Below are positions 11,123 through 33,816 of a DNA stretch of 64,000 bases, in pieces. The DNA is taken from NCBI GenBank assembly GCA_963748815.1, contig CAVVKJ010000010.1:662124-726123 (forward strand). Direction: 5' to 3'. Positions within the stretch are counted from its first letter, which is position 1. Each line of letters begins with the position of its first letter. A program made the translations under genes and the position numbers. A model generated the notes under the pieces. The model saw only the letters and a program-made list of their open reading frames with translations, searched no databases and was not told where the DNA came from. The DNA comes from an uncultured Gemmatimonadales bacterium. GTDB taxonomy: Bacteria; Gemmatimonadota; Gemmatimonadetes; Gemmatimonadales; GWC2-71-9.

Positions 11123-12060
11123 ATGCGCGTCGCATCGTGCAGGATGAAGTGAGCCGACGCTTGCCCTCGGCCTCGAGCGTACCAGCGCGTTGACGCGCGA
11201 GGCCGCCGCCGGCGGAGCCCGGCTCGTCGTCTTCCCCGAGACCTGGCTCCCCGGATATCCCGCCTGGCTCGACCACTGCGGCGATGCCGCCTCTGGAACC
11301 ACCCACCCACGAAGACCGTCTTCCGCCAGATGGCGGAGCAAAGCGTCGACCTCAATGGTGAATCCGGCGCGGCGCTCGCCGCCATCGCCCGCCACAGCGC
11401 CGTCACCTCGTGGTCGGGGTGACCGAGCGTGTCGCTGCGGGACCGGGCCGAGGCACACTATTCAACGCCCTCCTCACCCTTGGCCCCGACGGTTCCCTCC
11501 TCAACCATCACCGCAAGCTGGTGCCGACCTATACCGAGCGACTGGTGTGGGGGCCGGGCGACACGGCGGGGCTGCGAGCGGTCGAGACACCGGCGGGACG
11601 GGTCGGCGGACTCATCTGCTGGGAACACTGGATGCCGCTCACCCGGCAGGCGTTGCACGAATCGGGAGAGGACATTCACGTGGCGGTCTGGCCGACGGTG
11701 CACGAGATGCACCAGGTGGCCAGCCGGCACTACGCCTTCGAGGGACGCAGCTTCGTTTTGGCGGCGGGAGGGCTGATGCGGGCGTCAGCGTTGCCGGTGG
11801 AATTTGTTTCAGCCGCCGGCTCCGAGGATCCGGATGCGTGGGTCCTGCGGGGTGGGAGTGCCATCATGGCCGGATGGGGCGTACAGGCCCGGCTCGGCGG
11901 CGATCTTGACGGCTGACCTGGGCCTCGGCAGGATTCAGCAAGAATCGACGACACTGGACGCTGCCGGGCGCTACGCCCGACCGGATTGTCTCGAGGTTCG
12001 AGTGCCGCGCCTCTCCCCCGGCTCACGCCTGTGGGGCCCAGAAAGAATCCGTAGTTCTCC
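11123..12060 (+). pseudogene. nitrilase / C-N hydrolase family gene with at least 5 frame disruptions
   Basis: Family-like peptides are spread over the frames in this order: [104 protein letters not shown], then [45 protein letters not shown]. The 3' limit is approximate. Confidence 0.75.
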
Positions 12061-13169
12061 TGCGCAGCAATTTGCGATACGCCCGTCGCCACCGATGCCG
12101 GGACGAGCACATCCGGCCCGGTCTCTGCATGACCCCAGCACCAGACCTCGTCGAGAGAGCTGCGACCGCACGCAAAACCGCTCCCGACCGCCAATTGAAC
12201 GAATTTGTGCCCCCCGGCCACGAGCACCGGTGTCTCAGAGGGAGTCACGGTCCCATCACCGAGGGGGCCGGGGCCCCAGCAGGCGGCAGTGGAGTCGGTG
12301 AGGGTTCCGCAGACCCCGACGCGAAAGCCAGAGCTCCCGATGATGTAGGTGCCCTCCATGGCGAGGCTGGTGAACTGCAGCGTTGCAGAAACCTGCTGCG
12401 GCATTCCACCGACCTGCCAGCACCACGCGGTAGAATCGCTCACGGCAAGCGCACAGAAGCCTGGGCTCACCGTGGCACTCACAATTCCCCTCACGGGGGG
12501 AAGCCCGCTGACTTGCGTCGGGGCCGGCGGGACTCCGTTCGAACACCAGATGGCCGCAGAAACATCGAGTGCGCACACCGCCTCGAAGATGCTGCCAGAA
12601 GCGCTCACAGCGAGCTCGATGTAGTTCCGAGTGTCATCCACCAAGCCGGGGCTCACATTCCACCAACCAAAGTCCAGATTGTTTGACACCGGTTCGGCAT
12701 TGGCCCAGAAAGACAGTCCCCAGCAGCGGAGCTCTCCGTTCGCAAGGCCGCAGCCCATTCCGCCCGCCGCCGCCAATTGGTCCACCCGAAATGCCTCACC
12801 CGTGGACTCAAAATCAATCGGCTCGCCCTCTGGGATGCTGGCCCGGACCTGGTTCACGCCCGACGTGGCGCCGAGCGTCCACACCGCCTTCGCGTACCCG
12901 TCGGCATCCGTCGTCACGCCGGTGGGCGCGATGCTCCCCCCACCCTGCCGAATCGACCAGGTCATGGCCACGCCGGCCCTTGGCGTCCCCGACGGGTCGA
13001 CCGCCCGGACGACGAGTGTGTCAATCAACTCCCACCCGGGCGCCCCGACCATCGAGGGCGCCTGGACGATGATCAACTCGGCCGGCAACGGCTCGGTCGT
13101 CTGGTCGTCGCAGGCGACAGAGCTCAGCATCGCGATCGACATCAGCCCTGCATAACGCAGTGTGATCAC
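11730..13169 (-). CDS. lipoprotein paralog A: Ig-like domain plus RCC1-like (xCGLxxxGxxxCWG) repeats, probably 3'-truncated
   Basis: GTG start gives [19 protein letters not shown]. Repeats include LRCWG, AIWCS, AWCWQ, AACWG and VWCWG. Family similarity stops near 12024. The last ~97 codons are antisense to the nitrilase remnant. Confidence 0.65.
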
Positions 13170-13240
13170 GGAAACCCTCTCGTTGAGACCATCGTGGTCC
13201 GCGCCGTGAGCGTTTCACTTCGGACCGGCTGCACCGGCTC
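12770..13240. repeat. copy 1 of the ~1885-bp-period tandem duplication (best-conserved block)
   Basis: 13081-13240 aligns by eye with 14966-15125 (for example GCCGGCAACGGCTCGGTCGTCTGGTCGT..GCTCAGCATCGCGATC). The N-termini of paralogs A and C are highly similar over ~130 aa. Block limits are approximate. Confidence 0.6.
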
Positions 13241-14011
13241 GTAGTGGGTGACATTCAAATAAACTATGCTCGTGTTGGAAAGATCACTGCTGCAATAAAC
13301 TTCGTCATCGGCCAAGCGCACGCAGGTGAGCGAATTGTAGGCGAATCCGGCGATGGGGAGCTCCGGCAATCCCGTGGGCCCCGGCCGTACCTCTGCATTT
13401 GCCCAGAGCCAGAGCGAGTTGGCTCCGGCAAATCCGAGCACCAACGCCTTGACGCTGTACCCGGCCAGACGGGATCCGCCACCCGGCCCAAGCACCATCG
13501 TCGGAAGCCGAACATCTTGATCGCCCCAGCACCACACCTCGCCGTTGGCCTTCCTGCCACAACTGAACCCGTCCGCCACCGTCAGCTCGACGAAGCGGTG
13601 CTCGCCAGCCACATACCCCACACCGTTGTACCCCGTAATTGTGCCATCTCCCGGCGGGCCGATACCCCAACAGGCGGCGGTCGAGTCTGCTAGGAGTCCG
13701 CACGCCCGGTAATCTGGATACAGCACGGGGATTCCCACGCCGTCAGACCACGACATCCAAAGAGCGGTGAAAGCCGGCGAACCCGCGATTTGCTCCGGGG
13801 CTGACCCGTAAATCCAGCACCAGGCGGTCGAGTCGGCGACCGAGATGCCGCAGAATCGTTTGTCCCTCCCCTCACCGGGACGCATGCCGCCGACGAGCTG
13901 ACGAATCACGGGAAGGCCCGCGACGAGAGCGACGTCGGGCGCGCCTGCACTCGCGCACCAGACCGCTCCCTGTGTGTCGAGCCCGCAGGCAACGGATCCG
14001 GCAACGGCCAC
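13166..14011 (-). CDS. RCC1-like repeat paralog B (no signal peptide; begins mid-repeat)
   Basis: GTG lies 2 nt after the TAG of paralog C and gives VAVAGSVACGLDTQGAVWCAS. Contains AWCW, ACWG and VWCWG. The C-terminus [25 protein letters not shown] is shared with paralog D. GTGA overlap with paralog A. Confidence 0.6.
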   Translation of the reverse strand: MAVAGSVACGLDTQGAVWCASAGAPDVALVAGLPVIRQLVGGMRPGEGRDKRFCGISVADSTAWCWIYGSAPEQIAGSPAFTALWMSWSDGVGIPVLYPDYRACGLLADSTAACWGIGPPGDGTITGYNGVGYVAGEHRFVELTVADGFSCGRKANGEVWCWGDQDVRLPTMVLGPGGGSRLAGYSVKALVLGFAGANSLWLWANAEVRPGPTGLPELPIAGFAYNSLTCVRLADDEVYCSSDLSNTSIVYLNVTHYEPVQPVRSETLTARTTMVSTRGFP

Positions 14012-14013
14012 GC

Positions 14014-15054
14014 CTATGCCTCCTCGCCGGTGGTGCGCCCACAGCTGAACCGATCGCCGACCACCAATTCCACGAAGCGATGCCCACCGGACACCACCAC
14101 CGCACTGTCCATCCCGCTACCCACAGGGCCATCGCCTGCAGGACCAACGCCCCAGCAGACGGCTACCGAATCCGCTTGCAGGCCGCACGCCCGGTAGTCG
14201 CCATACGGAACCACCGCTGCGCCGAAGGCATTGCCACGTGACAACCATATGGCGCGAAGCGCCGGCGAGGCGATGACCTGGCTCGGCGGCGAGGCGAGCG
14301 TCCAACACCACGCTGTCGAATCAGCCGCGGCGGAACCGCAATATTGTGGCGACCGTAGGTAGGTGAATCCGAGGAGGGCCCCTGCGATTTGGCGAATGGC
14401 CGGAAGGTCTGAAATCTGAGTCGGGGTCGGCGACTGTGCGGTGGCACACCACACCATCCCTACACCGTCCAGCCCGCAGACCGAAGGTCCTGCCACCGCG
14501 AGATCAACGAAGTGATGGGTATCGTCCACCAGACCAGGGGTGAAATTCGCTCCGGCATTCGGCGCGACGGATACGGGCGAGGAGTTGCCCCAGAATGGCG
14601 CCCCCCAACACCAGAGCGCTCCTGCGCGCAGCCCGCAGGCAAACCCGTCCTCCGCGGACAGGCGGTCCACCCGAAATGCCTCGCCCGTGGACTCGAAATT
14701 CGCCTGAGCGCCCTCGAGAGTCCCGGCCCGCACCCGGTTCACGCCCGACGTACTCCCCAGCGTCCACACCGCCTTCGCCAATCCGTCCGCATCGGTCTCA
14801 TCGGTCGTTGGCGCGATGCTCCCCCCACCCTGCCGCACCACCCACGTCACCTCGACCCCCGCCCTTGGCGCCCCAGAGGGATCGACCGCGCGGACGATGA
14901 GAGTATCGATCAACTCCCAGCCAGGCGCGCCCACGGTAGAGGGGGCTTGGACGATGACCAGGTCGGCCGGCAACGGCTCGGTCGTCTGGTCGTTGCAGGC
15001 GACAGTGCTCAGCATCGCGATCAACATCAGCCCTGCGTGACGCGATGGGATCAC
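14014..15054 (-). CDS. lipoprotein paralog C: Ig-like domain plus RCC1-like repeats, ending abruptly at TAG
   Basis: GTG start gives IPSRHAGLMLIAMLSTVAC. The ORF ends SCGRTTGEEA-stop at the point where the paralogs continue GEVWCWG. Confidence 0.65.
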   Translation of the reverse strand: MIPSRHAGLMLIAMLSTVACNDQTTEPLPADLVIVQAPSTVGAPGWELIDTLIVRAVDPSGAPRAGVEVTWVVRQGGGSIAPTTDETDADGLAKAVWTLGSTSGVNRVRAGTLEGAQANFESTGEAFRVDRLSAEDGFACGLRAGALWCWGAPFWGNSSPVSVAPNAGANFTPGLVDDTHHFVDLAVAGPSVCGLDGVGMVWCATAQSPTPTQISDLPAIRQIAGALLGFTYLRSPQYCGSAAADSTAWCWTLASPPSQVIASPALRAIWLSRGNAFGAAVVPYGDYRACGLQADSVAVCWGVGPAGDGPVGSGMDSAVVVSGGHRFVELVVGDRFSCGRTTGEEA

Positions 15055-15125
15055 GGCAGACCTCTCGTTGACATCATCGTCGTCCGCGCCGTGAGTGTCT
15101 CACTTCGGACCGGCTGCACGGGGTA
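14655..15125. repeat. copy 2 of the ~1885-bp-period tandem duplication
   Basis: See 12770-13240. The start codons of paralogs A (13169) and C (15054) are exactly 1885 bp apart. Confidence 0.6.
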
Positions 15126-16037
15126 GTACGCGAGCTCGCCAACGATCGTACTGCCGCCGTCAAGCTCGTCCGAACAGTACACTTCGTTCCCGGCCATCCG
15201 GAGGCAGGTGACGGTGTTGTAGGCCATCGAAAGGACGCCGGCGTTGGGCAGCCCGGTTGGGGGGAGGAGCATCGGGGCGGTGGGTGCCCACCAGTGCTGG
15301 AACTGGCCCGGCGACAGGGCGGTGAGGACCCTGGCCTGGGATCCGCCGAGGAGCGTGGCGCCGGAACCGACCGCAGTCGGGGTCGTAGGCGTCAGGTCCG
15401 GCCCGCCCCAGCAATCCACCTCTCCCGTCGGCAATCGTCCACAGGAGAAGCGATCACCCACGGTCAGCTCCACCCAGCGGCCCCCTCCCGTCACGGCCAC
15501 CACCGAGTCGAGCCCGCCCCACAGAGATCCATTCCCAGGCTGGCCCACACCCCAGCAGTAGGCGGTCGAGTCCGCCGTAATCCCACAACCGCGATAGTCC
15601 TTGTACCGAACAGGGGCCGCACCGAACGTATTCCCATTCGCCACCCAGATCGCCGCGAAGGCCGGTGATCCCACCACCGGCTCCGGGACGGAGTCGGTGC
15701 GCCAGCACCAGGCAGTCGAATCGGAGGCCGCAAGCGCGCAGAACCGCATGCGCCCGCTGCCCCACCAATTATTGGCGCCGACCAACTGGCGGGCGGCGGG
15801 CAGGCCGCCCACCTGTTGGAGGGCGTGGGACGCTCCTGTACTACACCACACTACCTGCGCAGGATCGAGTCCACAGACTGTGGACCCCGACACCGCAATA
15901 TCCGTAAATGCGTGGAGGTCATCCACCAGCGCCGGCGATACGTTCGCAGGTGGGAAAGGTCCTTGGGATACCGGTTCCCCGTTCGCCCAGAAACCAGGTC
16001 CCCAGCACCACAGTGTCGTTCCGACCATGGGAGCCAC
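15051..16037 (-). CDS. RCC1-like repeat paralog D (no signal peptide or Ig-like domain)
   Basis: GTG start gives APMVGTTLWCWGPGFWANGEPVS, which aligns with the middle of paralogs A and C. An in-frame TGA lies 11 codons upstream. GTGA overlap with paralog C. Confidence 0.6.
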   Translation of the reverse strand: MAPMVGTTLWCWGPGFWANGEPVSQGPFPPANVSPALVDDLHAFTDIAVSGSTVCGLDPAQVVWCSTGASHALQQVGGLPAARQLVGANNWWGSGRMRFCALAASDSTAWCWRTDSVPEPVVGSPAFAAIWVANGNTFGAAPVRYKDYRGCGITADSTAYCWGVGQPGNGSLWGGLDSVVAVTGGGRWVELTVGDRFSCGRLPTGEVDCWGGPDLTPTTPTAVGSGATLLGGSQARVLTALSPGQFQHWWAPTAPMLLPPTGLPNAGVLSMAYNTVTCLRMAGNEVYCSDELDGGSTIVGELAYYPVQPVRSETLTARTTMMSTRGLP

Positions 16038-22340: not shown

Positions 22341-22344
<4 letters not shown>

Positions 22345-24854
22345 TCCAGTACCCCCAGCCCGTGACGGGCAAAGAAATCCTCGCACTTGGTGCGCACCTG
22401 CGCCCACGACCCGATGACCCGCTCCGCCCGCGGGAGCCCCGCCAGCACCAGGGGGCCGTACCGCTTCGTCACCACCCGGCGGTCGAGCAACACCACCACG
22501 CCGACGTCAGTGGTGGAGCGGATCAGCCGCCCGAACCCCTGCTTGAGCTTGAGCGCCGCGTGCGGGAGGAGATAGCCCATGAAGCCGTCCTCCCCCGCCT
22601 CCGCCAGCCGCTCGAGACGCGCCGCGGTGATCGGCTCCGACGGCACCTTGAACGGCAACTTGCACAGCACTAATCCTCGCAGCGCACGCCCCGGCACGTC
22701 CACCCCCTCCCAGAAGGAGTCGGTGCCGAGGAGGATCGCGTTCCCCGCGTCGCGGAACCGGCGGAGCAGCGTGTCCCGGCTGCTCTCCCCCTGTACCAGC
22801 AGCGGCCACCGGGGGTCGAGCATCGTCCGCAGCTGCTGCGCCGCCCGCCGCAGGGCGGCGTGGCTCGTGAACAGGACGAACAACCCCCCGTCGGCGGCGT
22901 GCGCCAGGTCGGTCACCGCCTGCGCGAGGGCGGCGTCGTGCGCCGCCTCGTCCTCCCGCGGGTCGGGGAAATCGTCGGGGATGCCGAAGAGGCATTGCGA
23001 GGGGTAGTCGAAGGGAGACGAGAACACTTCGCGGGTGGTCACCGGGCTCGGCGAGACCGCGAGCCCCAGCCGCCGCTCGAGGAACTCGAACTCGCCACCC
23101 GCCGCCAGCGTCGCGCTGGTGAGGACGACCGTCTTCAACCGCTCGAACAGCAGCTCCCGGAGCACCGGCGCGAGATCGAGCGGCACCGCCGAAAGCTGGG
23201 TGTGCTGCCGCTTGGCGCCGGAACGTTCGATCCAGCGGACGGTGGCGGCGCCACCGGCCGCGGGGCGGAGCGTCCGGTTGAGGCCGTCGGACACGTTGTT
23301 CAGGCGGCGGACGACCGCGCGCATTTCCTGCAGCAGCTGGTCGCCCCGTTCGGTCGACTCCACCTGGGCCAGGCGGTCCTCCACCGTTTCCACCTGGTTC
23401 TTGATCTGGTCGAAGCTCGACAGGAGCGCGTCCAGCTCCATCCGGAGCCCCTCCTCCCAGACCTCGTCCTTCTCAAACTCGTCGGTGAGACGGCGCTGGC
23501 CGCCACCCGCCGCCTCCGCCATCCCGTGCAGGCGAAGGAAGAGCTGCTCCGCGGCGCGGCGCGCGTCGCCGATGGCCGGCATCAGCCGCTCGCGCACCAG
23601 GTCGAGGCTGGCCCGGCTCAGCAGGTCGCCGCGCCCCGAGAGCTCCATGACCAGCGACGGCACCAATCCCTTGCGGTTCCGCTCGAACCGGCCGAGCAGG
23701 CGCTGGACGCCGCGGCTCGTGACCTGCGTCCCGAGGTGGGACGCCGCGACATCTTCGAGGTGGTGGGCCTCGTCGAGGATGAGCCGCTGGTAGGGCGGGA
23801 GCACCGCCGCCTCTTCCCAGTTGTCCGACGCCTGCCGGACGGCAAGGTCGGCGGCCAGGAGGTGGTGATTCACCACCACCACGTCGGCCTCGGCCGCGCG
23901 CCGCCGCGCCTTGAAGAGGAAGCACTGGTCGAAGAAGCCGCACTTCACACGGGTGCACAGATCGGCCTCGGCCGAGATCTCGTCCCACACTTCGCTGGTC
24001 GGCTGCACCGGCAGGTCGCTCAGCGTCCCGTCCGCGGTGCGCGACGCCCATTCCGCGAGGCTCACCAGCTCGTCCTGCTTGTCCGGCTCGAGCAGGCTCT
24101 GCTGCGCCCCCGTGGCGTGCTGCAGCCGGGAGAGGCACAGATAGTTCCGCCAGCCCTTCAGCAGCGCAAACTTCGGCGCCCAGCCCTCCTCCGCCAGCGC
24201 TTCCCGGAGCATCGGCAGGTCCTTGCCGACCAGCTGCTCCTGGAGGTTGATCGTGTTGGTGCTGATGACCGTGCGCTCGTTGTTGGCCCGCGACCAGGCC
24301 AGCGCCGGCACCAGGTAGGCGAACGACTTCCCGACCCCGGTGCCCGCCTCCAGGACGAGGACGCCGCCGTCGTTGTAGCCGTCGGCAATGAAGGCCGCCA
24401 TGTCGCGCTGGCTCTGCCGATCCTCGTACTGGCCCAGCACCCGGGCGACGGGCCCGTGCTCACCCAGCGTTTCCACCACGGCGTAGGGATCGAGCCGCTG
24501 GAGCTTCTGTGCGTGCGGGACTTCGACGACGACGTACAGCCGCTCGCCGGCGTTATCGATGATGCCGAAGCCCACCCCCTCATCGTGCAGCCGGGCTGCC
24601 ACGGCCAGGTCGGGCTCGGAGGGCTCGAGGTTGCCGCTGGGATGGTTGTGGAGCAGCATCTGGCCGCGGCGGGCGGCCCCGGGGAGGGCGAGCACCATCT
24701 GGACCGTACCGCGGGCGACCGCGCGCGCCGCGGTGACTACCCCCTCCTCGTCCACGTCGGCGACGAACGACACCTCGCGACCGCCGGCCGCGCGAATCTC
24801 GCCGGCCAGCAGGGTGCGCACGGCCACGGCGATGCGAACCACGGAAACGGTCAC
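22341..24854 (-). CDS. RadC/JAB(MPN)-like N-domain fused to a DinG-type Fe-S DNA helicase
   Basis: The N-terminus carries LLHNHPSGNLEPSEPD (JAMM-like). The helicase part has EAGTGVGKSFAY (Walker A), LILDEAHHLED (DEAH), and Cys spaced C..C-x4-C-x5-C as in E. coli DinG (C120/C194/C199/C205). One continuous 837-aa ORF. Confidence 0.8.
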
Positions 24855-26821
24855 GGGGCCGGCGCGGGATCGATAAGAATGAAGGGTGCGTCGTCCTCGC
24901 CCATGGCGCGGAACCAGGCGATCAGCGCGTCGATGCTGTCAGGCGGGAAGATGCCCCGCGTGCCGATCATCCGGCGGGTGATTTCCAGCGTCCCGTCGAC
25001 AAAAGCGTAGGTGCCCCAATACTCGCCAAACACGCTGGCCGCGTGCACCGAAGGCGGCAATTGGGGGCGCCATCCGGCCGGCAGGACGATGCGCACCTTG
25101 ACGACGTCCTCCTCGGGGCCGAAGACGCGGGCGGCGTCGATCGGGAAGCGGCGCACCGGCAGCTGCTCCAGCGCATCCGCCGCGTCGGTGAACGCCGCCA
25201 CGGTTCCCACGGGGTTCTCGAGGATCCAGTTGCTGCCGGAACGGCGCAGCGCCTTGCCGTCCTGCACGGAGAGCGAGACCCGCACCGGCGCGGCCAGGTC
25301 CAGCCCCTGGAACGTCTCCAGGCTGTCTCCCCGGGCGCCGGTAAACCACCCCTGCGCGATCTTGCGCGCGAAGTTGGCCCGGCCGGCCGAATCCATGGGT
25401 GACTCGAACAATTCCCGCAGCTCCCACTCCCGCGACCCGGTCATCTCCTCGCTGTACGCCCCGTTGAACTTGCCGGCCGGATCGAGCCGGCCGGACAACT
25501 GGATGAGCGACAGGCGCTCGGCGGGCGTCTCCTCCGGAAAGGTGAGTTCCTCCACCGCGCCCGCGGCGGGCACCCCGAGGCCGAACTCCCCCTGCAGCTG
25601 CGGCGGCAGGACGCCGAGCGGCAGCAGCGCCACCGTCAGGTCGGCGTAGACCCGGCCCTCGGGAAGCGTGACGTACGCGATGGCATGGTCGAACTGGTCC
25701 ATCGAAGGGAGGCCCCGTTGGACGCCCCCGTCGCTGCTGGTGAGGACGGTGACGGCGTTGAATCCCAGCGACCGGAGCGCGGCCACGAACAGCGTCGCCT
25801 TGTCCTTGCAGTCGCCGAAGCCGCTGGCCACCACCTCGGCGGGCGGGCGGGGCTGGTAGCCGCTGATGCCGAGGGAAATCGACACGTACCGAATATCCTG
25901 CGCCACCCAGCGCTGAATCGCCGCCGCCGTGTCGCGCGCCGTGGTGGCGTCCGTCACCAGCGACCGGACCTGGCGCACCAGCTCGGGCGAGAGGGCGTAC
26001 CGGTCCTCCGCCAGTGTTCCGTACCACCGGCCGATGTCACCCCAGGTCAGCGGCGACGAGGCCGCCACCCACATGTAGATGTCGTTCGAATCGGCCGCGT
26101 AGGCCTCGGGCTTGATGCGCGGGAGATCTTCCGTGGCCCAGGTCATCACCTGGCGGCCGTTGGACCGCTCCGTCAGGCGCGGAAAGTTGAGGTTCCGTTC
26201 CTCGATCCGGAGCCGTTCCCCCTCCGGCGCGTCGATGATGAGCCGGGACCGCTTCACCATGAGTCCGGTGCTGACCCCCCACCACTGGTAGAAGTCACCC
26301 GGCACCCACGCCTTCGTCTTGACGGTCGTGTAGCTGTAGTCCACGATGGTGCCCACCGCCACGCCGCTCATCGAGACGCGCACCACCTTGCGATTGGCGT
26401 ACACCGGGGCGCCCATCGCCGCGGGGACGTCGCTCTCCTGCTGCTGCGCGGGGCCGGCGCTGAGGACGGTGCCGTCGGGCTGGACCACGCGAATCCAGTT
26501 GAGGGTGAACTCCTCGTTGTCCGGCGACCAGGAGAAGGAATGCTCCGCGAGCCCCTCGACCGCGGCCTGCTTCAGGACCTGGACCACCTGTCGAAAGGTC
26601 CGCCGCTCGCGACCGTCGGCCTCGACGACGATGACACCGTCGTCGAGCAGGAAGGCGGCGGACTCCTCGGGAAAGTCGGCGGGATCGACGGCGAGCCGGT
26701 AAATCGAGTCGGAACGCACCGAGGGATCGCCGGCGGGGGTGATGCGGGGCGCCTGCGCCGACGCGCCTCCCGGCAGGAGCAGGATTCCGACGACGATCCA
26801 GCGGAGTCGCTTCAGGCTCAC
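24851..26821 (-). CDS. secreted DUF3857 plus transglutaminase-like domain protein
   Basis: Signal peptide is MSLKRLRWIVVGILLLPGGASAQ. The transglutaminase core reads SGFGDCKDKATLFVAALRSLG..DHAIAYV (Cys-His). Confidence 0.75.
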   Translation of the reverse strand: MSLKRLRWIVVGILLLPGGASAQAPRITPAGDPSVRSDSIYRLAVDPADFPEESAAFLLDDGVIVVEADGRERRTFRQVVQVLKQAAVEGLAEHSFSWSPDNEEFTLNWIRVVQPDGTVLSAGPAQQQESDVPAAMGAPVYANRKVVRVSMSGVAVGTIVDYSYTTVKTKAWVPGDFYQWWGVSTGLMVKRSRLIIDAPEGERLRIEERNLNFPRLTERSNGRQVMTWATEDLPRIKPEAYAADSNDIYMWVAASSPLTWGDIGRWYGTLAEDRYALSPELVRQVRSLVTDATTARDTAAAIQRWVAQDIRYVSISLGISGYQPRPPAEVVASGFGDCKDKATLFVAALRSLGFNAVTVLTSSDGGVQRGLPSMDQFDHAIAYVTLPEGRVYADLTVALLPLGVLPPQLQGEFGLGVPAAGAVEELTFPEETPAERLSLIQLSGRLDPAGKFNGAYSEEMTGSREWELRELFESPMDSAGRANFARKIAQGWFTGARGDSLETFQGLDLAAPVRVSLSVQDGKALRRSGSNWILENPVGTVAAFTDAADALEQLPVRRFPIDAARVFGPEEDVVKVRIVLPAGWRPQLPPSVHAASVFGEYWGTYAFVDGTLEITRRMIGTRGIFPPDSIDALIAWFRAMGEDDAPFILIDPAPAP

Positions 26822-28116
26822 GTCTTCAGTTCCTTCTTCTTGGCCGCGGGGAAGAGCACGTTGTTCAGGATCAGGCGGTACCCGGGTGAATGCGGATGCA
26901 TCGACAAGTCGGTCGGGGCGTCACCGATCTGGTGCTGGGGGTCTTCCGGGTCGTGCCCCCCGTAAAAGGTCCAGGTGCCCTGCCCGTGCTCCCCATGAAG
27001 ATACTTGGCCCACGGCGCTCCCGGCTCGTCGGCCAGGACGGTGACCCCCGGCTTGATCCGGCTCTTCCGGAACGAGGTCGTGAGTCCGTAGAAATCGGGG
27101 ATCGACTCCCGGTGATTCTGGACGAGCATCGTCGCCACCGGGTCGATCTTCGCGCTGAAGCCGAACGACCGGAAGCTCCCCAATTCCTGCCGCCGGCTGA
27201 GCGCGTTGACCTCGTGGCCGTCGATGTCGGAGAACTGCGACACGGTCGGGCTCAACTCGAGGCGCGCGTCCTGGAAGGCGAGGGCGCGGCTCCAGTCCAT
27301 CTTGGCGGTGGCGTTGGGGTCCATCGGCGTCTGGTCGGCGTACGCCGCCGCGATGTCCACCCCCGCGCCGGCCAGCGCAAGGTCGAGCGTCTCGGTCGCG
27401 GCGCACATCGCGAAGAGGAACCCCCCCTGCTGGACGTAGGCCGCGATCGCTTCCGCGACAGCGCGCTTCTCCGCCGGGACGTTGGGAAAGCCGAACGCCC
27501 GCGCCATCGCGGTGTTGCGCTCGACCATCTCGGTCAGCCAGGGCGCGCCCGCGTACGTGAGGTAGAACTTGGAGTACTGCCCCGTGAAGTCCTCGTGGTG
27601 CAGGTGAAGCCAGTCATACCGCGCGAGCCCCGTCCCGCCTGGCGCCAGGACCTCGGGATCCCAGACCTTGTCGAAGTTGATGCCGGCATACCGCAGCACC
27701 ATGGTGACCGCGTCGTCCCACGGCGCGGCATTGGGCGGGGCGTACACGGCGACCTTGGGCGCCTTTTCCAGCGGCACCGCCTCCATGTTGCCCAGCTGGA
27801 GCTCGGCGCGGATGCCGAGGAGGGCACTCTCATCCAGCGGTTCGGTGGTCACTCCGGCCAGCGCGGCATCGCGCGCCGTGACGGGATCGGACGGGACCAG
27901 GAAGGCGCCGCTCCGATAGTTGAGGAACCATTCCGCCCGACCACCTCGCTCGAGGAGCCGGAAGACGACCCCGTACGCCTTGAGATGGTCGCTCTGGGTG
28001 TCGTCCATCGGAATGAGCAGCCAGGGCGCGCGCCACACCGACCGCGGCGGCCACGCGAAGAAGGGGGCCGCCGCGAGGACGCCACCGGCGCTCCGGAGAA
28101 ACTCCCGGCGTCGCAT
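26818..28116 (-). CDS. Tat-signal protein of unknown function (possibly class I glutamine-amidotransferase-like fold)
   Basis: Internal ATG at 28116 gives MRRREFLRSAGGVLAAAP (twin-arginine signal). The LLIPMDDTQSDHLKAYG family is often mis-named in annotations. The fold assignment is from memory only. Confidence 0.65.
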   Translation of the reverse strand: MRRREFLRSAGGVLAAAPFFAWPPRSVWRAPWLLIPMDDTQSDHLKAYGVVFRLLERGGRAEWFLNYRSGAFLVPSDPVTARDAALAGVTTEPLDESALLGIRAELQLGNMEAVPLEKAPKVAVYAPPNAAPWDDAVTMVLRYAGINFDKVWDPEVLAPGGTGLARYDWLHLHHEDFTGQYSKFYLTYAGAPWLTEMVERNTAMARAFGFPNVPAEKRAVAEAIAAYVQQGGFLFAMCAATETLDLALAGAGVDIAAAYADQTPMDPNATAKMDWSRALAFQDARLELSPTVSQFSDIDGHEVNALSRRQELGSFRSFGFSAKIDPVATMLVQNHRESIPDFYGLTTSFRKSRIKPGVTVLADEPGAPWAKYLHGEHGQGTWTFYGGHDPEDPQHQIGDAPTDLSMHPHSPGYRLILNNVLFPAAKKKELKT

Positions 28117-29840
28117 CAGCTCTCCGGAATCCCGCCGCGCGCGGCGTCGAGCACCCGCCGGGCCTGCGGCACGGCGGCGCTCCCGGGGTACGCGAGGATC
28201 AGGTGCTCGAGGTGGTCCACCGCCTCGGCGGCTCGATTGAGCGAGAGGAGCAGGCGCGCGAGCGCCAGTTCCGCGGCAGGCGCGGTGGCAGGCGCCGAGG
28301 AGTCGGCCGCCGAGCGGAGTAGTCGTTCCCCCTCGACGGGGCGTCCACGCGCCACTTCGACCTGCCCGGCCAGGAGGCGAAGTTCCGCCCCGCCTGCGGC
28401 GGGGGCGAGCCCCTCCGCCACCGCGAGCAGGCCGGTGACCGCCGCGGCCGAATCGCCGCGCGCCAGCGCCAGGAGCGACGCGCCGAGCGGCGGCAGGGAA
28501 TCTTCCTCGATCGGCTGGATGAGCGCGAGCATCGCCGTGCGGGCGGTCGCCTCCTCGCGCGTCCCGGCAAACGGCCCGGCGGCACGGAGCGCGGTCGACG
28601 CCCCCGCGAGGTCGCCACGATAGAGGCGGATCCGCCCGAGCACGGCCATCGCCTCCACCGTGCTGTCGGATGCCAGGACCGCCGCCGCACGGTCCAGGTT
28701 TCCCTGTTGAATCCACCCCTCGGCCACCTGCAGCGTGAGTCGGTCGGCGTTCTCCTGCCCAAGGTGGGTCCGCAGTTCGTCGAGCTGGCGCTGGGCCTCC
28801 GCCACCTGCCCCTCGCGCAGGAGCACCGTCACCAGCGTCGCCGTTGCCCCGGCCGCCATGTCCGGCGGCGTGCTCCCGTCCGCCGCCAGCGCCACGAGCA
28901 TCCGCCGCGCAGACGCGGCGTTGCCCGCGTCGGCATAGGCGCGGGCCGCCTCGAGCCGCATCCGCGACGCGGCGCTGCCACTGCTCCGGTCGGCGATCTG
29001 TTCGAGCGCCTCGCCCCGCACCTCGGCGGCTTCCGTCCCCTCGACGGTGCGCGCCGCATCGAGGAACTGCCGCAGGGCCTCGACCGTCTCGGTCTTCGCC
29101 TCTGGCAGGCTGCTCATCAGGAGCGCATAGGCGGCTGCGGGAGCACCCCACTGGACCTCGAGCTCCGCGCCGAGGCGGCGCGCGGCCGGGGTGCCGCGAG
29201 AGAGCTGGCGGACGATCCTGTCCCGATCGGCGACTGGCGCGCGCGCCAGCGCGTTCCGCGCCGTCAGTCGATATCCGGGATACCGGTCCATCGCGAGCGC
29301 CCACTCCCGGGCCGCTTCGTCCCAGTTGTTCTGGGCGGCGGCGAGCAAGGCCATTTCCCCGGCAAGCGCAGCTGGATCGCCCAGCCGCTCCCGTCCCGTG
29401 AGGTAGGCGCGGCGGGCGCCACTCCCGTCCCGCTGGCCGAGGAGAGTGTTGCCCCAGTCGCGATAGGGGGCCTCGCTCCCCGGCTCGACCACGGCCCAGC
29501 GCCTGGCGACCGCGCCCACGCTGTCGGGCCGGTTGGCAGCGGCCCAGCCTCGCATGGCGACGGAGTATCCAGCGATGATGGACGGGTTGCGGGTCAGCAA
29601 CGCCTCGGCAGGCAGCGCCAGTTCAGCGTCGCGCCGCAACGGCCCCAGCGACCGCTCGAGTCCCAGCAGCGCCGAGAGGTTGTCCGGATACTCGCGAAGG
29701 ACGCGCAGGTAGGCGTCTGCCGCGCCGGAGAAATCGCTCCGACGCTCCAGTTCATAGGCGCGCGTCATCAACTCGGTCTGTCCGGCGAGCTGGCCAGACA
29801 TTCCGAGGAGCAGCAGCAGCGGCAGGAGCGCGCGCCTCAT
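28116..29840 (-). CDS. secreted TPR-repeat protein
   Basis: Signal peptide is MRRALLPLLLLLGMSGQLAGQ. The rest is a repetitive Ala/Leu/Arg helical-repeat pattern over 574 aa. Confidence 0.7.
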   Translation of the reverse strand: MRRALLPLLLLLGMSGQLAGQTELMTRAYELERRSDFSGAADAYLRVLREYPDNLSALLGLERSLGPLRRDAELALPAEALLTRNPSIIAGYSVAMRGWAAANRPDSVGAVARRWAVVEPGSEAPYRDWGNTLLGQRDGSGARRAYLTGRERLGDPAALAGEMALLAAAQNNWDEAAREWALAMDRYPGYRLTARNALARAPVADRDRIVRQLSRGTPAARRLGAELEVQWGAPAAAYALLMSSLPEAKTETVEALRQFLDAARTVEGTEAAEVRGEALEQIADRSSGSAASRMRLEAARAYADAGNAASARRMLVALAADGSTPPDMAAGATATLVTVLLREGQVAEAQRQLDELRTHLGQENADRLTLQVAEGWIQQGNLDRAAAVLASDSTVEAMAVLGRIRLYRGDLAGASTALRAAGPFAGTREEATARTAMLALIQPIEEDSLPPLGASLLALARGDSAAAVTGLLAVAEGLAPAAGGAELRLLAGQVEVARGRPVEGERLLRSAADSSAPATAPAAELALARLLLSLNRAAEAVDHLEHLILAYPGSAAVPQARRVLDAARGGIPES

Positions 29841-32800
29841 GGCGCCGGTCGCTCGGTCAGGCGCCTGAAGTACTCCAGCACCAGCCGGCGATCCTCCGGC
29901 GAGAGCCCCTGCAGCTGTTCCCAGCTCGGCAGCCGGAGCTGCTGATCGTCCACGCCCAGCTGCGCCCGAAGCGCCGGCGGAAGGCGCACGTCGTCCTGCG
30001 CCCCGGTCGTGCTCTGCCGCTCCTTCTGGTCGTCCTGCTCCTCCCCCTGCAGCGTCCGTCCGGCATCGAGCATCCGGCGGAACAACCGCTCCTGCCGTTC
30101 CACCGTGCGCTTGTCGAGCCGACCGGCCTCCAGTTGCCGCGCGAGGTCCCGCGCCTCCCCGGCCAACTCCCCTGCCCCTTCCGACTGGGTTTCGGCCCGC
30201 AGCCGTTCCAGCTCCTCGGCGAGTGCGCGCTGCTGCGCGGACAGCTGCCGGATCTGCTCCTGCATCGCGCCTCCGCCCACCATCGGCAGCATCTGGGCGC
30301 CTTGCTGGCTCAGCTGGCCCTGCTGCTGGGCCATCTGGTTCATGCGCGCCATCGCCTCGGCGAGCCCGGAGCCGGACCCGGAGCCGGACACATCCCCCCG
30401 CGCCCGCGACATCTGGTAGGCCGCAGCGTTCAGCGCTTCCACCGCCTCGCCGGCCTGCGCCGTGGCGTCGCGCTGCCCCGGCACCGCAGTCGAGAGCGCC
30501 TCGCGGGCCGCGCTCATCTGCCGGCGGGCCGACTCGAGCGTCGCCCCGATCTGCGGCGGCACCAAAGCGTTCTCCCCCGACACCTTCTTGTACTGTTCCG
30601 TCAGCTTCTCGACCCCCTCCTCCACCACGGCCTGCTGGGCCCGGAAGGTCGACGCTGACTCACCCAGGCGCAGCGCCTCGCTGATGGCCAACTGCCGCTC
30701 CGCAAGGCGGCTCGTTTCCGCCAACATCTGGTCGATGGCCGCCAACACCTCCGCCTTCCACTCGCCCTGCACATCCTGGCGTTGCTCGTCTATCTGCTTC
30801 TCGAGCGCCTGCAGCCGCTCCTCGGCCTGCTGCCCCTGGCGCTTCGCCGCCTGCGGCTTGCCTTCCTTGGCCGCGGCCGCCGCCTGCTTCATTTCCGCTG
30901 CCGCGGCGGAGGCCGCCTTGGCCGTCGCCTCCATGCGATCGGCCTGCTCGCTGTTCTGCATCCGGTCAAGTTCCTTTGCCGACTCCTGCATCGCCGAGGC
31001 GAGCGAATCGGCCCGGGCCGCGAGCGCTTCCTCCTGTGCGGCGGCACGGGTCGAATCGGCGCGCGCCACCTCCTCGTTCCAGCGCCCCTGCTCCTTCGCA
31101 AGGTCGCGCGCCTCGGCCGCCATGTTGGCCATTTGCCCCTCCATGGCCGCCCGTTCGAAGAGCTTCTGGCTCCGTTCCAGCGCCTCCTTGAGCTGGCGCT
31201 GCGCCTCCGCAAGCTCCTCGAGCGCGCGCCGGGACCGCGCCGCGTCGAGCTGGCTCAGCGCCTCCCGCAACTCCTCCAGCTGCTGGCGCATTTCCGGGGT
31301 GAGCGCGCGGTCGAGCTGCTCGGCGATCTCCTGCATCCGGCGCTCGAACTCCGGGTCCTGCACACCCGCCTCCGCCGCCGCGCGCTGCAAGTCGTCGATG
31401 GCCGCGCGCGTCTCCTCGGCCTGCCGCACCAACTCCTCCTGCTGCCGGGCCACCGCTTCAGCCCGCTTCGCCTCGTCGAACGACATCGCGGCCGCTTCGC
31501 GCCGGCCCGGCTGTTCAGCGCTCGAGCGGGACGCCTCGCGCGAGAGGTCTTCCGTCTGGCGCTGCAGCCGCTTGCTCGCCGCGGCGAGCGAGTCGAGCTG
31601 GGCGCCCACCGACTCCGTGGCGGCGCGCTCGGCCGCCCGCACCTCGGCGAGCGTCGGGAGGCGGAGCACGTACTCGCGCGAGCGCCCAGTCCGCCGGCCC
31701 GGCGCGTTGTCGGTCGCGACCGCGTAGTAGCGCACGGTGTCGCCCGGCAACAGCGAGCGTCCCCCGAGCTCCAGCACCCACGGGACGATCAATCGGTCGG
31801 GCGCCCCAGCCGGGATCGGGACCTCCTCCCGCCGCTCCAGCTCCTCGATCCCCAGCCGACTGATGCGCCGGCTCACCACCACGAGCGCCGTGACCCCGTG
31901 GTCGTCTCGCGCGTCGACGACCAGCGGCACCCGGAGCCCGAGGGGGGCGAGCGTGTCCGCTCCCGGCACCGGGATGCCGACCGCCGGCACGCTGTCCGGC
32001 GCGATGCGCAACAGCAGGGCGCCGTCGTTCCCGGCCAGCGGCATCCCGTTCGAGGTCGTCAGCGCCAGGCGATACGCCCCCGACGCGACGGGGACGCTCC
32101 GCCCTTCGAACCGCCCTCCATCGACGACGAGCACCACGGGACCCCGCGGGCCGACCAGGGCCGCGGCGGAGAGTGGCGCGGTGGCCTCCCCTTCCACCAG
32201 CAGGCGCGTCCCCTCGGGGAGCAGGATCGAATCGGGGCCGAAGGCCAGCGATTCGTCCTCGATGCCCAGATACCTCGGGTACTGCGCGGTCACCGACAAC
32301 GACCCGAGGAAGGCGGGAATGCGGACCGCGACGTGAAGGGTGTCCGATCCCCGACTGCCGCTGGTGGCGCGGACGAAGAGGTCGGCGGTGAGAGGCTGGC
32401 TTAGGACGGTCGCTTCCCCGATCGAATCGAGCGTGACCTCCTCGGGTCGCCAGGTCTCGCCCGGCGCTCGCGTCCAGAGGGTGGCGACGCCGCGGCCCGG
32501 GGCGCGCACCACGAGCGAAACCCGGGCTCCCCGGTCCACGGAGAGCGCAGAGGCGTCGAGTTGGACGGCGCCCATCGCGAGTCCCAGAGCCTCGGCGGGA
32601 TGCCAAAGCATTCGGACCGGCGCGCGGCCCGGCCCGGCCCCGAGCAAACAGGCCCCGCCGACGACCAGCGCGACGGCGCTGATGCGGTTGGATCGCAAGA
32701 CGCGGGCGGTGATCGGCGCCAGCGCCGCCGGACCCCGTGCCGCGAGGTCCGCCGCCCCGGCGTTGTCGGCGGCAAGGTAGAGGTCGTGGCTCAGGCCATC

Positions 32801-33124
32801 TGCCGGCGGAGCGAGCATGCCGGTGAGCGCGCCGAGCCGCCAGGCGCCCTCCGCCTCCAGGCGCCGGGCGAGCAACGGCACCCTGAGGCTCCGCACTCGA
32901 CGCGCCACCAGGACGGTAGCGGCGGCGGCGCCCACCAGCGCCACGATCCACGCGGCCGGCACCCACCAGAGCGACTGCACCAGGCCAAGCCTCGCGAGCC
33001 ACGCCGCGCTCCCCAGCACAATGAGCCCGATGCCGATGACCAGCGCGCCGCCGCCAGTGAGCGACCGCCGGGTGATCGGGAGGGTCAGCCGCTCGAGGGC
33101 GTCCCGCGTCTGCACCGGAGTCAC
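29837..33124 (-). CDS. large membrane protein with extended coiled-coil (DUF4175-like)
   Basis: 1095 aa. N-terminal TM segments, a central beta-rich region, then ~450 aa of A/E/Q/R-rich coiled-coil. GTGA/ATGA overlaps with neighbours. Confidence 0.7.
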   Translation of the reverse strand: MTPVQTRDALERLTLPITRRSLTGGGALVIGIGLIVLGSAAWLARLGLVQSLWWVPAAWIVALVGAAAATVLVARRVRSLRVPLLARRLEAEGAWRLGALTGMLAPPADGLSHDLYLAADNAGAADLAARGPAALAPITARVLRSNRISAVALVVGGACLLGAGPGRAPVRMLWHPAEALGLAMGAVQLDASALSVDRGARVSLVVRAPGRGVATLWTRAPGETWRPEEVTLDSIGEATVLSQPLTADLFVRATSGSRGSDTLHVAVRIPAFLGSLSVTAQYPRYLGIEDESLAFGPDSILLPEGTRLLVEGEATAPLSAAALVGPRGPVVLVVDGGRFEGRSVPVASGAYRLALTTSNGMPLAGNDGALLLRIAPDSVPAVGIPVPGADTLAPLGLRVPLVVDARDDHGVTALVVVSRRISRLGIEELERREEVPIPAGAPDRLIVPWVLELGGRSLLPGDTVRYYAVATDNAPGRRTGRSREYVLRLPTLAEVRAAERAATESVGAQLDSLAAASKRLQRQTEDLSREASRSSAEQPGRREAAAMSFDEAKRAEAVARQQEELVRQAEETRAAIDDLQRAAAEAGVQDPEFERRMQEIAEQLDRALTPEMRQQLEELREALSQLDAARSRRALEELAEAQRQLKEALERSQKLFERAAMEGQMANMAAEARDLAKEQGRWNEEVARADSTRAAAQEEALAARADSLASAMQESAKELDRMQNSEQADRMEATAKAASAAAAEMKQAAAAAKEGKPQAAKRQGQQAEERLQALEKQIDEQRQDVQGEWKAEVLAAIDQMLAETSRLAERQLAISEALRLGESASTFRAQQAVVEEGVEKLTEQYKKVSGENALVPPQIGATLESARRQMSAAREALSTAVPGQRDATAQAGEAVEALNAAAYQMSRARGDVSGSGSGSGLAEAMARMNQMAQQQGQLSQQGAQMLPMVGGGAMQEQIRQLSAQQRALAEELERLRAETQSEGAGELAGEARDLARQLEAGRLDKRTVERQERLFRRMLDAGRTLQGEEQDDQKERQSTTGAQDDVRLPPALRAQLGVDDQQLRLPSWEQLQGLSPEDRRLVLEYFRRLTERPAP

Positions 33125-33816
33125 TGGCCGGACCCGACCGCATAGGCGATCAGGTTGACGCCCATGCGGAGCGCAGACTCCCGAATCGCCGGATCGTCCT
33201 TGTGGACGTCGGGATCCTCCCAGCCGTCGCCGAGGTCGGATTGATAGGTATAGAAGAGGGCGAGGCGGCCGTCGAGGAAAATGCCGAACCCCTGCGCCGG
33301 CTTGCCGTCGTGCTCGTGCACCTTCGGCACGCCGCGGGGAAACTGGTAGATGAGGTTGTAGATCGGGTGGTCGAGCGGCACTTCCTCAAGCGGCCGGTCC
33401 GGGAAGAGCCGGGCCAGTTCGCGGCGGAGCGACTCGTCCATCCCGTAGTTGTCATCGGCGTGGAGGAAGCCTCCCTGCAGCAGGTAGCGTCGGAGGGTGA
33501 CGAGGTCCTCGTCGCTGAACCGCACGTTGCCGTGTCCGGTCATGTAGAGGTAGGGAACCTCCCATAGACTCGGCGAGGACAGGGTGACCACCAGTTCCCG
33601 GGACGCCGTCTGCACATCCGTGCGGGCCCGGACCGCCGCCAGCAGATTGGGGAGGCTCGACGGGTTGGCGTACCAGTCTCCGCCACCGTCGTAATGGAGC
33701 CGACCGATGGTCACGCCCGACTCGCCCTGCGCCGACAGGGGGTGGACCCCGGCGAGGCAGAGGGCGGCGATCGACGAGAGACAGAGGCCCCGCACGGGGG
33801 ACCCGACCAGCTTCAC
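33121..33816 (-). CDS. DUF4159 domain-containing secreted protein
   Basis: Contains GRLHYDGGGDWYANPSSLPNLL and LRRYLLQGGFLHADDNYG..HPIY, matching my recollection of DUF4159. A signal peptide is present. Confidence 0.7.
   Translation of the reverse strand: MKLVGSPVRGLCLSSIAALCLAGVHPLSAQGESGVTIGRLHYDGGGDWYANPSSLPNLLAAVRARTDVQTASRELVVTLSSPSLWEVPYLYMTGHGNVRFSDEDLVTLRRYLLQGGFLHADDNYGMDESLRRELARLFPDRPLEEVPLDHPIYNLIYQFPRGVPKVHEHDGKPAQGFGIFLDGRLALFYTYQSDLGDGWEDPDVHKDDPAIRESALRMGVNLIAYAVGSGQ

Follow-up and report, generated by a model that had tools for sequence, protein, structure and literature searches.

A gene at positions 22341–24854 (minus strand) of a 64,000-nucleotide stretch of DNA from an uncultured Gemmatimonadales bacterium (contig CAVVKJ010000010.1; the whole stretch is called the window) encodes a protein in which a RadC-type JAB domain is fused to a helicase of the DinG family with an iron-sulfur (Fe-S) domain. 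Fusions of JAB and DinG were already described in 2011 and were named "RadC-like DinG" in 2025, and the gene of the window is a further member of this subgroup. The protein of 837 aa (~91.7 kDa) is very probably the Gemmatimonadales ortholog of RadC-like DinG and would work as a single-chain helicase-hydrolase against replication-blocking damage. The assignment of the whole gene is based on its open reading frame (ORF), the GC content at third codon positions (GC3), matches in Pfam and NCBIfam, homologs, and an AlphaFold2 (AF2) model.

Comparison with the Published RadC-like DinG Subgroup

RadC-JAB::DinG/Rad3 fusions were reported by Iyer, Zhang, Rogozin & Aravind (NAR 2011, PMC3239186) for five phyla, namely spirochaetes, deltaproteobacteria, planctomycetes, fusobacteria as well as firmicutes. 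The 2025 review that named the subgroup "RadC-like DinG" also modelled it, and reports no experiments on it (PMC11981726). Gemmatimonadota is listed as a carrier phylum in neither of the two publications and is new in this respect.

We compared the window protein with two reference members from Table S1 of the review, A0A0M4DKS9 from Desulfuromonas soudanensis and A0A2C9CFG9 from Ca. Kuenenia stuttgartiensis, using the first 399 residues of each. The identity was 48% over 383 aa for the D. soudanensis protein (residues 20–399, E = 3e-112) and 41% over 371 aa for the Kuenenia protein (E = 1e-104). Both alignments were collinear from the JAB domain through the Fe-S domain. The window protein has the N-terminal JAB domain and the helicase in one continuous ORF, the putative catalytic Glu, two His and Asp (E27, H69, H71 and D82), motor domains 1 and 2 (MD1 and MD2), the Arch domain, the Fe-S domain with four Cys, and intact ATP-binding residues. 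It also shares the similarity to YoaA and the C-terminal helix of MD2 (residues 817–830). The order of the domains (JAB, MD1 with the four-Cys Fe-S insert, Arch, MD2, C-terminal helix) is that of the reference members, and with the E/HxH/D site and the YoaA-like body shared as well, lineage is the sole difference of the window protein.

Organisms with RadC-like DinG were reported to lack HolC (chi) (PMC11981726). Among the 30 proteins scanned in the window there was no HolC-like match, which is not a genome-wide test. The only Gemmatimonadales entry of the review is a "DinG" without JAB from Gemmatimonas aurantiaca (C1A7T8, Table S1, PMC11981726). Its N-terminus appears to match the linker of the window protein (~residues 125–165). 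This could reflect either loss of the domain in Gemmatimonadaceae or a mis-called start.

A Minimal RadC-Type JAB Domain at the N-Terminus

All features of the gene that are described in the following lie on the minus strand, and coordinates refer to the window. The N-terminal part (~residues 7–112, 24519–24836) was assigned as a minimal RadC-type JAB/MPN+ domain from the Pfam RadC match, the match to the solved structure 2QLC, the AF2 model and Foldseek. In the context of the whole protein, residues 37–94 matched Pfam RadC (PF04002) with 27.0 bits at a gathering cutoff of 22.1, and the isolated N-domain reached 33.1 bits. The models for canonical RadC, NF000642 and TIGR00608, aligned to the JAB core only (25.2 and 19.1 bits, cutoffs 180 and 134). 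A profile built from 32 N-domains retrieved the solved RadC JAB structure 2QLC (E = 4.6e-8) and, weakly, AfJAMM. The AF2 model of the N-domain had a pLDDT of 90.8 and showed the topology α1(10–22)-β1(28–34)-β2(40–48)-loop-β3(65–70)-α2(80–91)-β4(95–99)-β5(106–110). When this model was compared to the PDB by Foldseek, 2QLC ranked first, followed by CSN5, BubCD, AfJAMM, Rpn11 homologs and PfJAMM1, so that the top-ranked structural matches are JAB/MPN proteins.

The JAMM motif HNHPSGNLEPSEPD (residues 69–82, 24609–24650) follows the pattern HxH-x7-S-x2-D. H69, H71 and D82 are the predicted Zn ligands, S79 is also present, and Glu27 (codon 24774–24776) is the predicted general base. The protein thus carries the complete JAMM/MPN+ signature (E ... 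HxH-x7-S-x2-D) on an MPN fold. Conservation was analyzed in a set of 32 diverse full-length representatives with a mutual identity of 33–54%. E27, H69, N70, H71, P72, G74, S79 and D82 were invariant in 32/32. The catalytic residues of the JAB domain and the ATPase/helicase motifs described below are both under purifying selection, as read from this alignment. The domain is acidic clade-wide (median pI 5.0, median net charge −5.9).

The closest solved structure is that of canonical RadC/YicR (helix-hairpin-helix domain (HhH) plus JAB; 2QLC), with which the window protein shares the JAB fold and the HNHPSG...PS..D motif. In contrast to canonical RadC, the window protein lacks the HhH domain, has its JAB domain at the N-terminus, and shows a shorter segment between β2 and β3. 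It has "DN" after β4, whereas "DH" is usual in canonical RadC.

An earlier note on this DNA, made from the letters alone, had placed a JAMM-like motif and a RadC-like segment in the N-terminal 110 aa and had proposed JAB/MPN profiles and AlphaFold as checks. The scores above the Pfam cutoff, the confident model and the first rank of 2QLC in both the profile search and Foldseek confirm this observation.

A Helicase Body Similar to YoaA

The JAB domain is connected to MD1 by a structured linker (~residues 113–145, 24420–24518), for which AF2 predicted helices at residues 123–129 and 135–139 with pLDDT values of 82–96. The Walker A motif GTGVGKS (residues 171–177, 24324–24344) has G173, G175 and K176 invariant, and in the DEAH box (Walker B, residues 361–364, 23763–23774) D361, E362 and H364 are invariant. 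The Fe-S domain (23922–24137) is recognized by its sequence and conservation, with Cys240, Cys300, Cys305 and Cys311 in the spacing C...C-x4-C-x5-C. In the set of 32 representatives C240 was present in 30/32, C300 in 26/32, and both C305 and C311 in 32/32. The Arch domain, with approximate boundaries, comprises ~residues 395–530 (23265–23672; AF2 helices 397–406, 411–448, 464–495 and 502–529). MD2 corresponds to Helicase_C_2 (PF13307, 144.9 bits, residues 649–808, 22431–22910) and contains motif VI, Q772-G-x-G-R-x-x-R779, with Q772, G773, G775, R776 and R779 invariant. The AF2 model ends with a C-terminal helix (residues 817–830, 22365–22406), the counterpart of the YoaA helix discussed in the review (PMC11981726). 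Other Pfam matches were DEAD and a sub-threshold DEAD_2.

The full-length AF2 model (pLDDT 88.9, pTM 0.86) was most similar to E. coli DinG in Foldseek (6FWR, E = 1e-41), followed by the exonuclease-carrying DinG (ExoDinG) of S. aureus, CasDinG and XPD. A sequence search of the PDB gave the same ranking. The NCBIfam scores for the helicase body were higher for YoaA (582.5 bits) than for Bacillus-type DinG (457.5) and E. coli DinG (430.4). The YoaA model (NF053712) aligned to residues 129–813, with a score under its equivalog cutoff of 680, and the E. coli-type DinG model (NF008729 / PRK11747) also remained below its cutoff (598). E. coli YoaA, a chi/HolC-associated Fe-S helicase with a role in tolerance to AZT (PMC4636137), is thus the best-scoring model and shares the four Fe-S Cys and the C-terminal helix, whereas the window protein has the additional N-terminal JAB domain.

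The ExoDinG models were likewise below cutoff (NF005981 457.5 vs. 789, TIGR01407 329 vs. 548, NF005569 151 vs. 794). Their alignments began at model positions 244–249 and left the exonuclease part unmatched. Positions 249–928 of the Bacillus-type ExoDinG model aligned to residues 136–827 of the query. Since this model aligns through the helicase part only, the JAB domain sits in the place of the exonuclease.

The earlier note had described a complete DinG/XPD-type helicase with Walker A, DEAH box and four Cys. These elements are present where it had put them, and the Helicase_C_2 score and the match to 6FWR agree with a complete helicase. The profile search that it had recommended for RadC, DEAD_2 and Helicase_C_2 returned RadC and Helicase_C_2, with DEAD_2 sub-threshold. 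Its term "DinG-type" holds for the family and the Fe-S domain; NCBIfam ranks YoaA ahead of E. coli DinG for the body, and "YoaA-like member of the DinG family" is the better label. Its contrast to E. coli DinG, which has no N-terminal domain, and to S. aureus DinG, which has an exonuclease there, is in line with the literature (PMC11981726, PMC12345164).

Reading Frame and Start Site

The sequence of the window has a GC content of 70%. In the frame of the helicase gene GC3 was 0.93 and the GC content at second positions (GC2) was 0.45. These values, together with homologs of equal length, identify this frame as the coding one. Close homologs with 73–96% identity and similar length (~833–840 aa) were found in more than 120 clusters, and wherever these clusters give a source name, it is Gemmatimonadales. 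An ORF of 716 aa with an Arg/Gly/Pro-rich translation runs antisense to the helicase gene (22860–25010, plus strand), as is usual for high-GC DNA. We did not take it as a gene, as the homologs and GC3 favor the frame of the helicase, which is read from the other strand.

The earliest start codon of the ORF is the GTG at 24854. Here the helicase gene overlaps the end of the upstream DUF3857/transglutaminase-like gene by 4 nt (GTGA, 24851–24854: GTG start of the helicase gene, TGA stop of the upstream gene). At the other end the TGA stop overlaps the ATG start of the downstream FAA-hydrolase-family gene (ATGA, 22341–22344).

A fusion in a single genome could be an artefact, in which a JAB gene and a helicase gene had become joined through a frameshift or the loss of a stop codon, or in which the real start lies beyond the JAB domain. 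The GTG start without an obvious Shine-Dalgarno sequence would fit this, as would the G. aurantiaca protein of the review, which starts at the linker and has no JAB domain. However, the continuous ORF is kept in the more than 120 close clusters, in 31 distant full-length representatives, and in 69 of the 80 genomes, which belong to many phyla (see below). Moreover, the linker is structured, the whole chain was modelled at the pTM given above, and no genuine stand-alone form of this JAB clade was found among the best 150 of 610 matches. The first helix of the JAB domain (residues 10–22) was modelled with high confidence and is kept in homologs, so that a start downstream of the JAB domain, named in the earlier note as a finding that would speak against the fusion, is unsupported. 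We consider an artefact extremely improbable, and conservation effectively refutes it.

Distribution of the Fusion and of Its JAB Clade

A phmmer search with residues 1–125 against 1.84 billion cluster representatives yielded 610 proteins at E ≤ 1e-3. Among the best 150 of these, 79 run on into the helicase and the other 71 have 277 aa or less. Many of the short matches are cut inside the domain or have frameshift-like Arg/Pro-rich tails, and no convincing stand-alone protein of the JAB clade was present among the best 150. As judged from sequence comparison, the clade is narrow and essentially confined to the helicase fusion.

For a survey of genomes we used the pattern G[QDE]VVIHNH, which was derived from a subset of 10 sequences sharing "VVIHNHPSG". 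At least 434 GTDB species genomes matched. The number is a lower bound, because the pattern excludes variants such as "MLLHNHPSG" of the window protein itself. According to the record titles, carriers are found in Geobacter, Geomonas, Desulfuromonas, Thermodesulfobacteriota, Binatia, Nitrospirota and Nitrospinota, and also in Spirochaetia, Acidobacteriota, Dadabacteria, Poribacteria, Calditrichota and Longimicrobiales. The survey of the phyletic spread, as suggested in the earlier note, thus revealed a wide distribution over many phyla.

We inspected 80 genomic loci with the clade pattern. A full-length fusion ORF was present in 69 of them, and in 7 it ran off the contig end. The fusion ORF was interrupted in two loci (L049, 9970–11041, and L052, 9976–10729), where it ends early past Walker A and the contig continues; the gene could be a pseudogene, or a frameshift or faulty assembly could have truncated it. 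For two further loci, L063 and L065, the automated call had taken a second, downstream JAB ORF; L063 also contains the full-length fusion.

These last two loci are from Desulfuromonadales and deltaproteobacterial metagenome-assembled genomes, in which two JAB paralogs are neighbors. In L063 the fusion gene is followed ~650 nt downstream by the gene for a canonical HhH-JAB RadC of 227 aa (13175–13858, plus strand), with an ORF of 203 aa between them, and L065 has a similar downstream ORF at ~13234–14014. Because canonical RadC coexists with the fusion in L063, the fused JAB domain is a paralog with its own role and not a relocated RadC.

About one third of the close full-length homologs (P0014, P0016, P0017, P0019 and others) have no PF04002 in the precomputed Pfam annotation. 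The domain has scores near the gathering cutoff, and the proteins are named just "DinG" or "helicase C-terminal domain-containing protein". Given the missing PF04002 calls and the generic names, the fusion architecture is under-annotated in public databases.

Proposed Function of the Helicase-JAB Fusion

The protein unites two intact parts in one chain, the JAMM site and an SF2B motor that includes the four-Cys Fe-S domain, with a structured linker between them. It would be a stand-alone SF2 DNA helicase with a predicted [4Fe-4S] cluster. Motors of the DinG/XPD/YoaA/SaDinG family are expected to bind single-stranded DNA (ssDNA) and to translocate in the 5'→3' direction, the Fe-S/Arch region being located at the junction. 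After loading on ssDNA, the motor would move 5'→3' toward a block, and the tethered JAB domain would hydrolyze whatever the motor exposes. The most likely role, by analogy to ExoDinG, would be that of a single-chain helicase-hydrolase for replication-blocking DNA lesions.

ExoDinG of S. aureus/Bacillus (PDB 8ZEF, 9II8; PMC12345164) likewise has an N-terminal hydrolase on a motor of the DinG family. Its helicase part aligns with the window protein (457 bits; Foldseek E = 1e-29), and ExoDinG alone among the N-terminally extended DinG proteins has a phenotype, in crosslink repair, for which both activities are required. The S. aureus deletion mutant is sensitive specifically to mitomycin C and formaldehyde, and an allele that is dead in either the nuclease or the helicase fails to complement it (PMC12345164). 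There are clear differences to the window protein. The accessory domain of ExoDinG is RNase H-like DEDD (a DnaQ-type 3'-5' exonuclease), whereas that of the window protein is JAB/deaminase-like, and the two folds are unrelated. SaDinG has a Cys-less pseudo-FeS domain, whereas the four Cys are kept in the window protein. E. coli YoaA helps to remove chain-terminating 3' ends, together with chi and exonucleases (PMC4636137).

As to the chemistry of the JAB domain, we tentatively lean to hydrolysis of amide (C-N) bonds in protein or peptide that is attached to or clamped on DNA, since the invariant residues are the JAMM isopeptidase constellation including Ser, the structural neighbors among solved proteins are peptidases, and the domain is acidic. 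To our knowledge, every characterized JAB enzyme hydrolyzes amide bonds, and relatives with the deaminase-like fold hydrolyze C-N bonds. A more specific version, in which the JAB domain would be a helicase-coupled peptidase that clears proteins or peptide remnants crosslinked to or clamped on the strand of the motor, is rather unlikely as it stands. A functional analogy is found in vertebrates, where FANCJ, an Fe-S helicase from the DinG/XPD family with 5'→3' polarity, and SPRTN, a zinc metallopeptidase, act together on a DNA-bound protein obstacle. However, these are two separate proteins, and SPRTN is a zincin and not a JAB enzyme. The processing of crosslinks or nucleoprotein, which the earlier note had offered as a role, is speculation.

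Cleavage of phosphodiester bonds by the JAB domain, as implied by the nuclease proposal of 2011, is possible and on the unlikely side. According to Iyer et al., the fused helicases are close to versions carrying a 3'-5' exonuclease, and the JAB domain, by non-homologous domain displacement, might be a nuclease (PMC3239186). The protein would then be a helicase-nuclease in which a metal-dependent JAB nuclease replaces the DnaQ-type 3'-5' exonuclease of ExoDinG. The JAB domain does occupy the place of the exonuclease in the alignment to the ExoDinG model, and sister subgroups of DinG have Exo, pseudo-Exo or Endo domains at the same N-terminal position (PMC11981726). Furthermore, canonical RadC has a DNA-binding HhH domain (PMC3239186), as seen also in L063. 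These points are countered by the full isopeptidase constellation, in which Ser79 is invariant, by the acidity of the domain, and by a helicase body that scores nearer to YoaA than to ExoDinG in NCBIfam. We also know of no JAB or deaminase-fold enzyme that cuts phosphodiesters. On these grounds we regard a nuclease replacing the exonuclease as doubtful.

The remaining share falls to other or regulatory roles of the JAB domain, among them a different chemistry. It could be a non-catalytic binding or regulatory module, for example a recruitment surface replacing the interaction with chi (HolC), or an autoinhibitory lid. In eukaryotes, MPN domains without activity often serve as scaffolds. Some fusobacterial RadC-DinG fusions are without zinc ligands (PMC3239186), and the reported lack of HolC in organisms with RadC-like DinG (PMC11981726) would also fit. 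However, E27, H69, H71, S79 and D82 are invariant in all representatives of the diverse set, and scaffolding alone would not keep the JAMM site in this way. A non-catalytic JAB domain is therefore improbable.

Several points weigh against a helicase-hydrolase, and in particular against a peptidase. Our literature searches found no demonstrated biochemical activity for RadC-like DinG or for any RadC-type JAB protein. E. coli radC/yicR mutants have no repair phenotype, according to Attaiech 2008 as cited in the review (PMC11981726). The sister subgroups bear nucleases (Exo, Endo) N-terminally, and the logic of displacement favors a nuclease over a peptidase (PMC3239186). The acidity of the JAB domain is weak evidence for amide chemistry. 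Finally, the genomic context in the 78 loci described below offers no functional clue.

Genomic Context

The helicase gene is flanked by the DUF3857/transglutaminase-like gene upstream and the FAA-hydrolase-family gene downstream, and an aminotransferase gene is also among its neighbors. Core genes in the window include purN, purH, selA, prs, and the genes for L25, H+-PPase, 2-oxoacid:ferredoxin oxidoreductase and thioredoxin. The RadC-like DinG gene is thus chromosomal and lies in a context of the housekeeping type.

For 78 loci (77 of the 80 fetched loci plus the window), we clustered all ORFs with 90 aa or more that lie no farther than 7 kb from the fusion. No neighbor was conserved across these loci, and the widest cluster comprised 20 of them. 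The widely shared clusters were mostly from Geobacter-related loci or consisted of spurious high-GC ORFs, and the window was in none of the 25 largest. Two Gemmatimonadales relatives kept the synteny, with the DUF3857/transglutaminase gene absent in one and the FAA hydrolase gene absent in the other. Since no neighbor is conserved and each adjacent gene is lost in one Gemmatimonadales relative, we rejected a functional inference from an operon, even though the gene overlaps its neighbors by 4 nt on either side.

A different identity to be considered was that of a DinG associated with defense or CRISPR (type IV, Csf4/CasDinG-like), or of some other helicase from a conflict system. The typeIV_DinG models of PADLOC matched the protein with up to 436 bits, and RadC-type JAB domains are common on mobile elements (PMC3239186; Iyer 2017). 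However, the PADLOC score is below the 582 bits for YoaA, and the Csf4 equivalog model TIGR03117 gave 105.9 bits at a cutoff of 400. All four Fe-S Cys are kept, whereas CasDinG has a Cys-less pseudo-FeS domain. No cas or defense genes were present among the scanned window proteins, no neighbor was conserved in the 78 loci, and tblastn with the JAB domain gave zero matches in 72,556 plasmids and 50,697 phage genomes. The chance of such an identity appears negligible to us, and it is effectively refuted. Origin from a mobile element or a defense system was rejected as well, as there was no plasmid or phage match and the PADLOC hit reflects generic DinG homology.

Scans of the window with Rfam and for tRNAs revealed three tRNAs only and nothing related to the locus. 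ARAGORN identified two tRNA-Ser and one tRNA-Gln, and tRNA-Sec was not found in the window. A selA gene (selenocysteine synthase) is located at 1508–2881 (plus strand).

Two further regions of the window were observed. Upstream of the helicase gene, at 26818–33816 (minus strand), a run of genes encodes a protein of 432 aa with a Tat-like signal, a TPR protein, a protein of 1095 aa without Pfam match, and a DUF4159 protein. The first three genes of this run are syntenic in the Gemmatimonadales loci L081 and L082. At 11730–16037 (minus strand) there are four tandem paralogs (11730–13169, 13166–14011, 14014–15054 and 15051–16037), all with Cys/Trp-rich "CWG...GDG" repeats. Those at 11730–13169 and 14014–15054 have lipoprotein-like N-termini followed by a near-identical Ig-like segment, with a weak Big_1 match on the first. 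Relative to the remainder of the window, this region is lower in GC (0.65–0.67) and strongly AT-skewed. The four genes resemble a family of surface proteins that was duplicated recently.

Significance for the RadC Family

As the same point was made by others in 2011 and 2025, the finding itself adds little, and a specialist is not surprised by the fusion. What is added is a further phylum, a JAB clade that is fusion-specific and strongly selected, and the assignment to a housekeeping chromosomal gene rather than a defense gene. The residual interest lies in a family that is biochemically untouched and that offers a tractable way to learn what RadC-type JAB domains do. Such domains are present in most lineages of bacteria, many mobile elements carry them as well, none has a known substrate, and their function has been a long-standing puzzle since the original "radC" phenotype was discredited. 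The fusion is a good entry point, because a JAB domain with a conserved site is tied to a motor whose substrate is understood (ssDNA, 5'→3').

The fusion also bears on how bacteria without chi/YoaA or ExoDinG handle replication blocks. If true, a helicase-coupled peptidase would be a single-polypeptide bacterial counterpart of FANCJ-SPRTN, and with its peptidase activity the RadC branch of the JAB superfamily would gain a biochemical activity for the first time.

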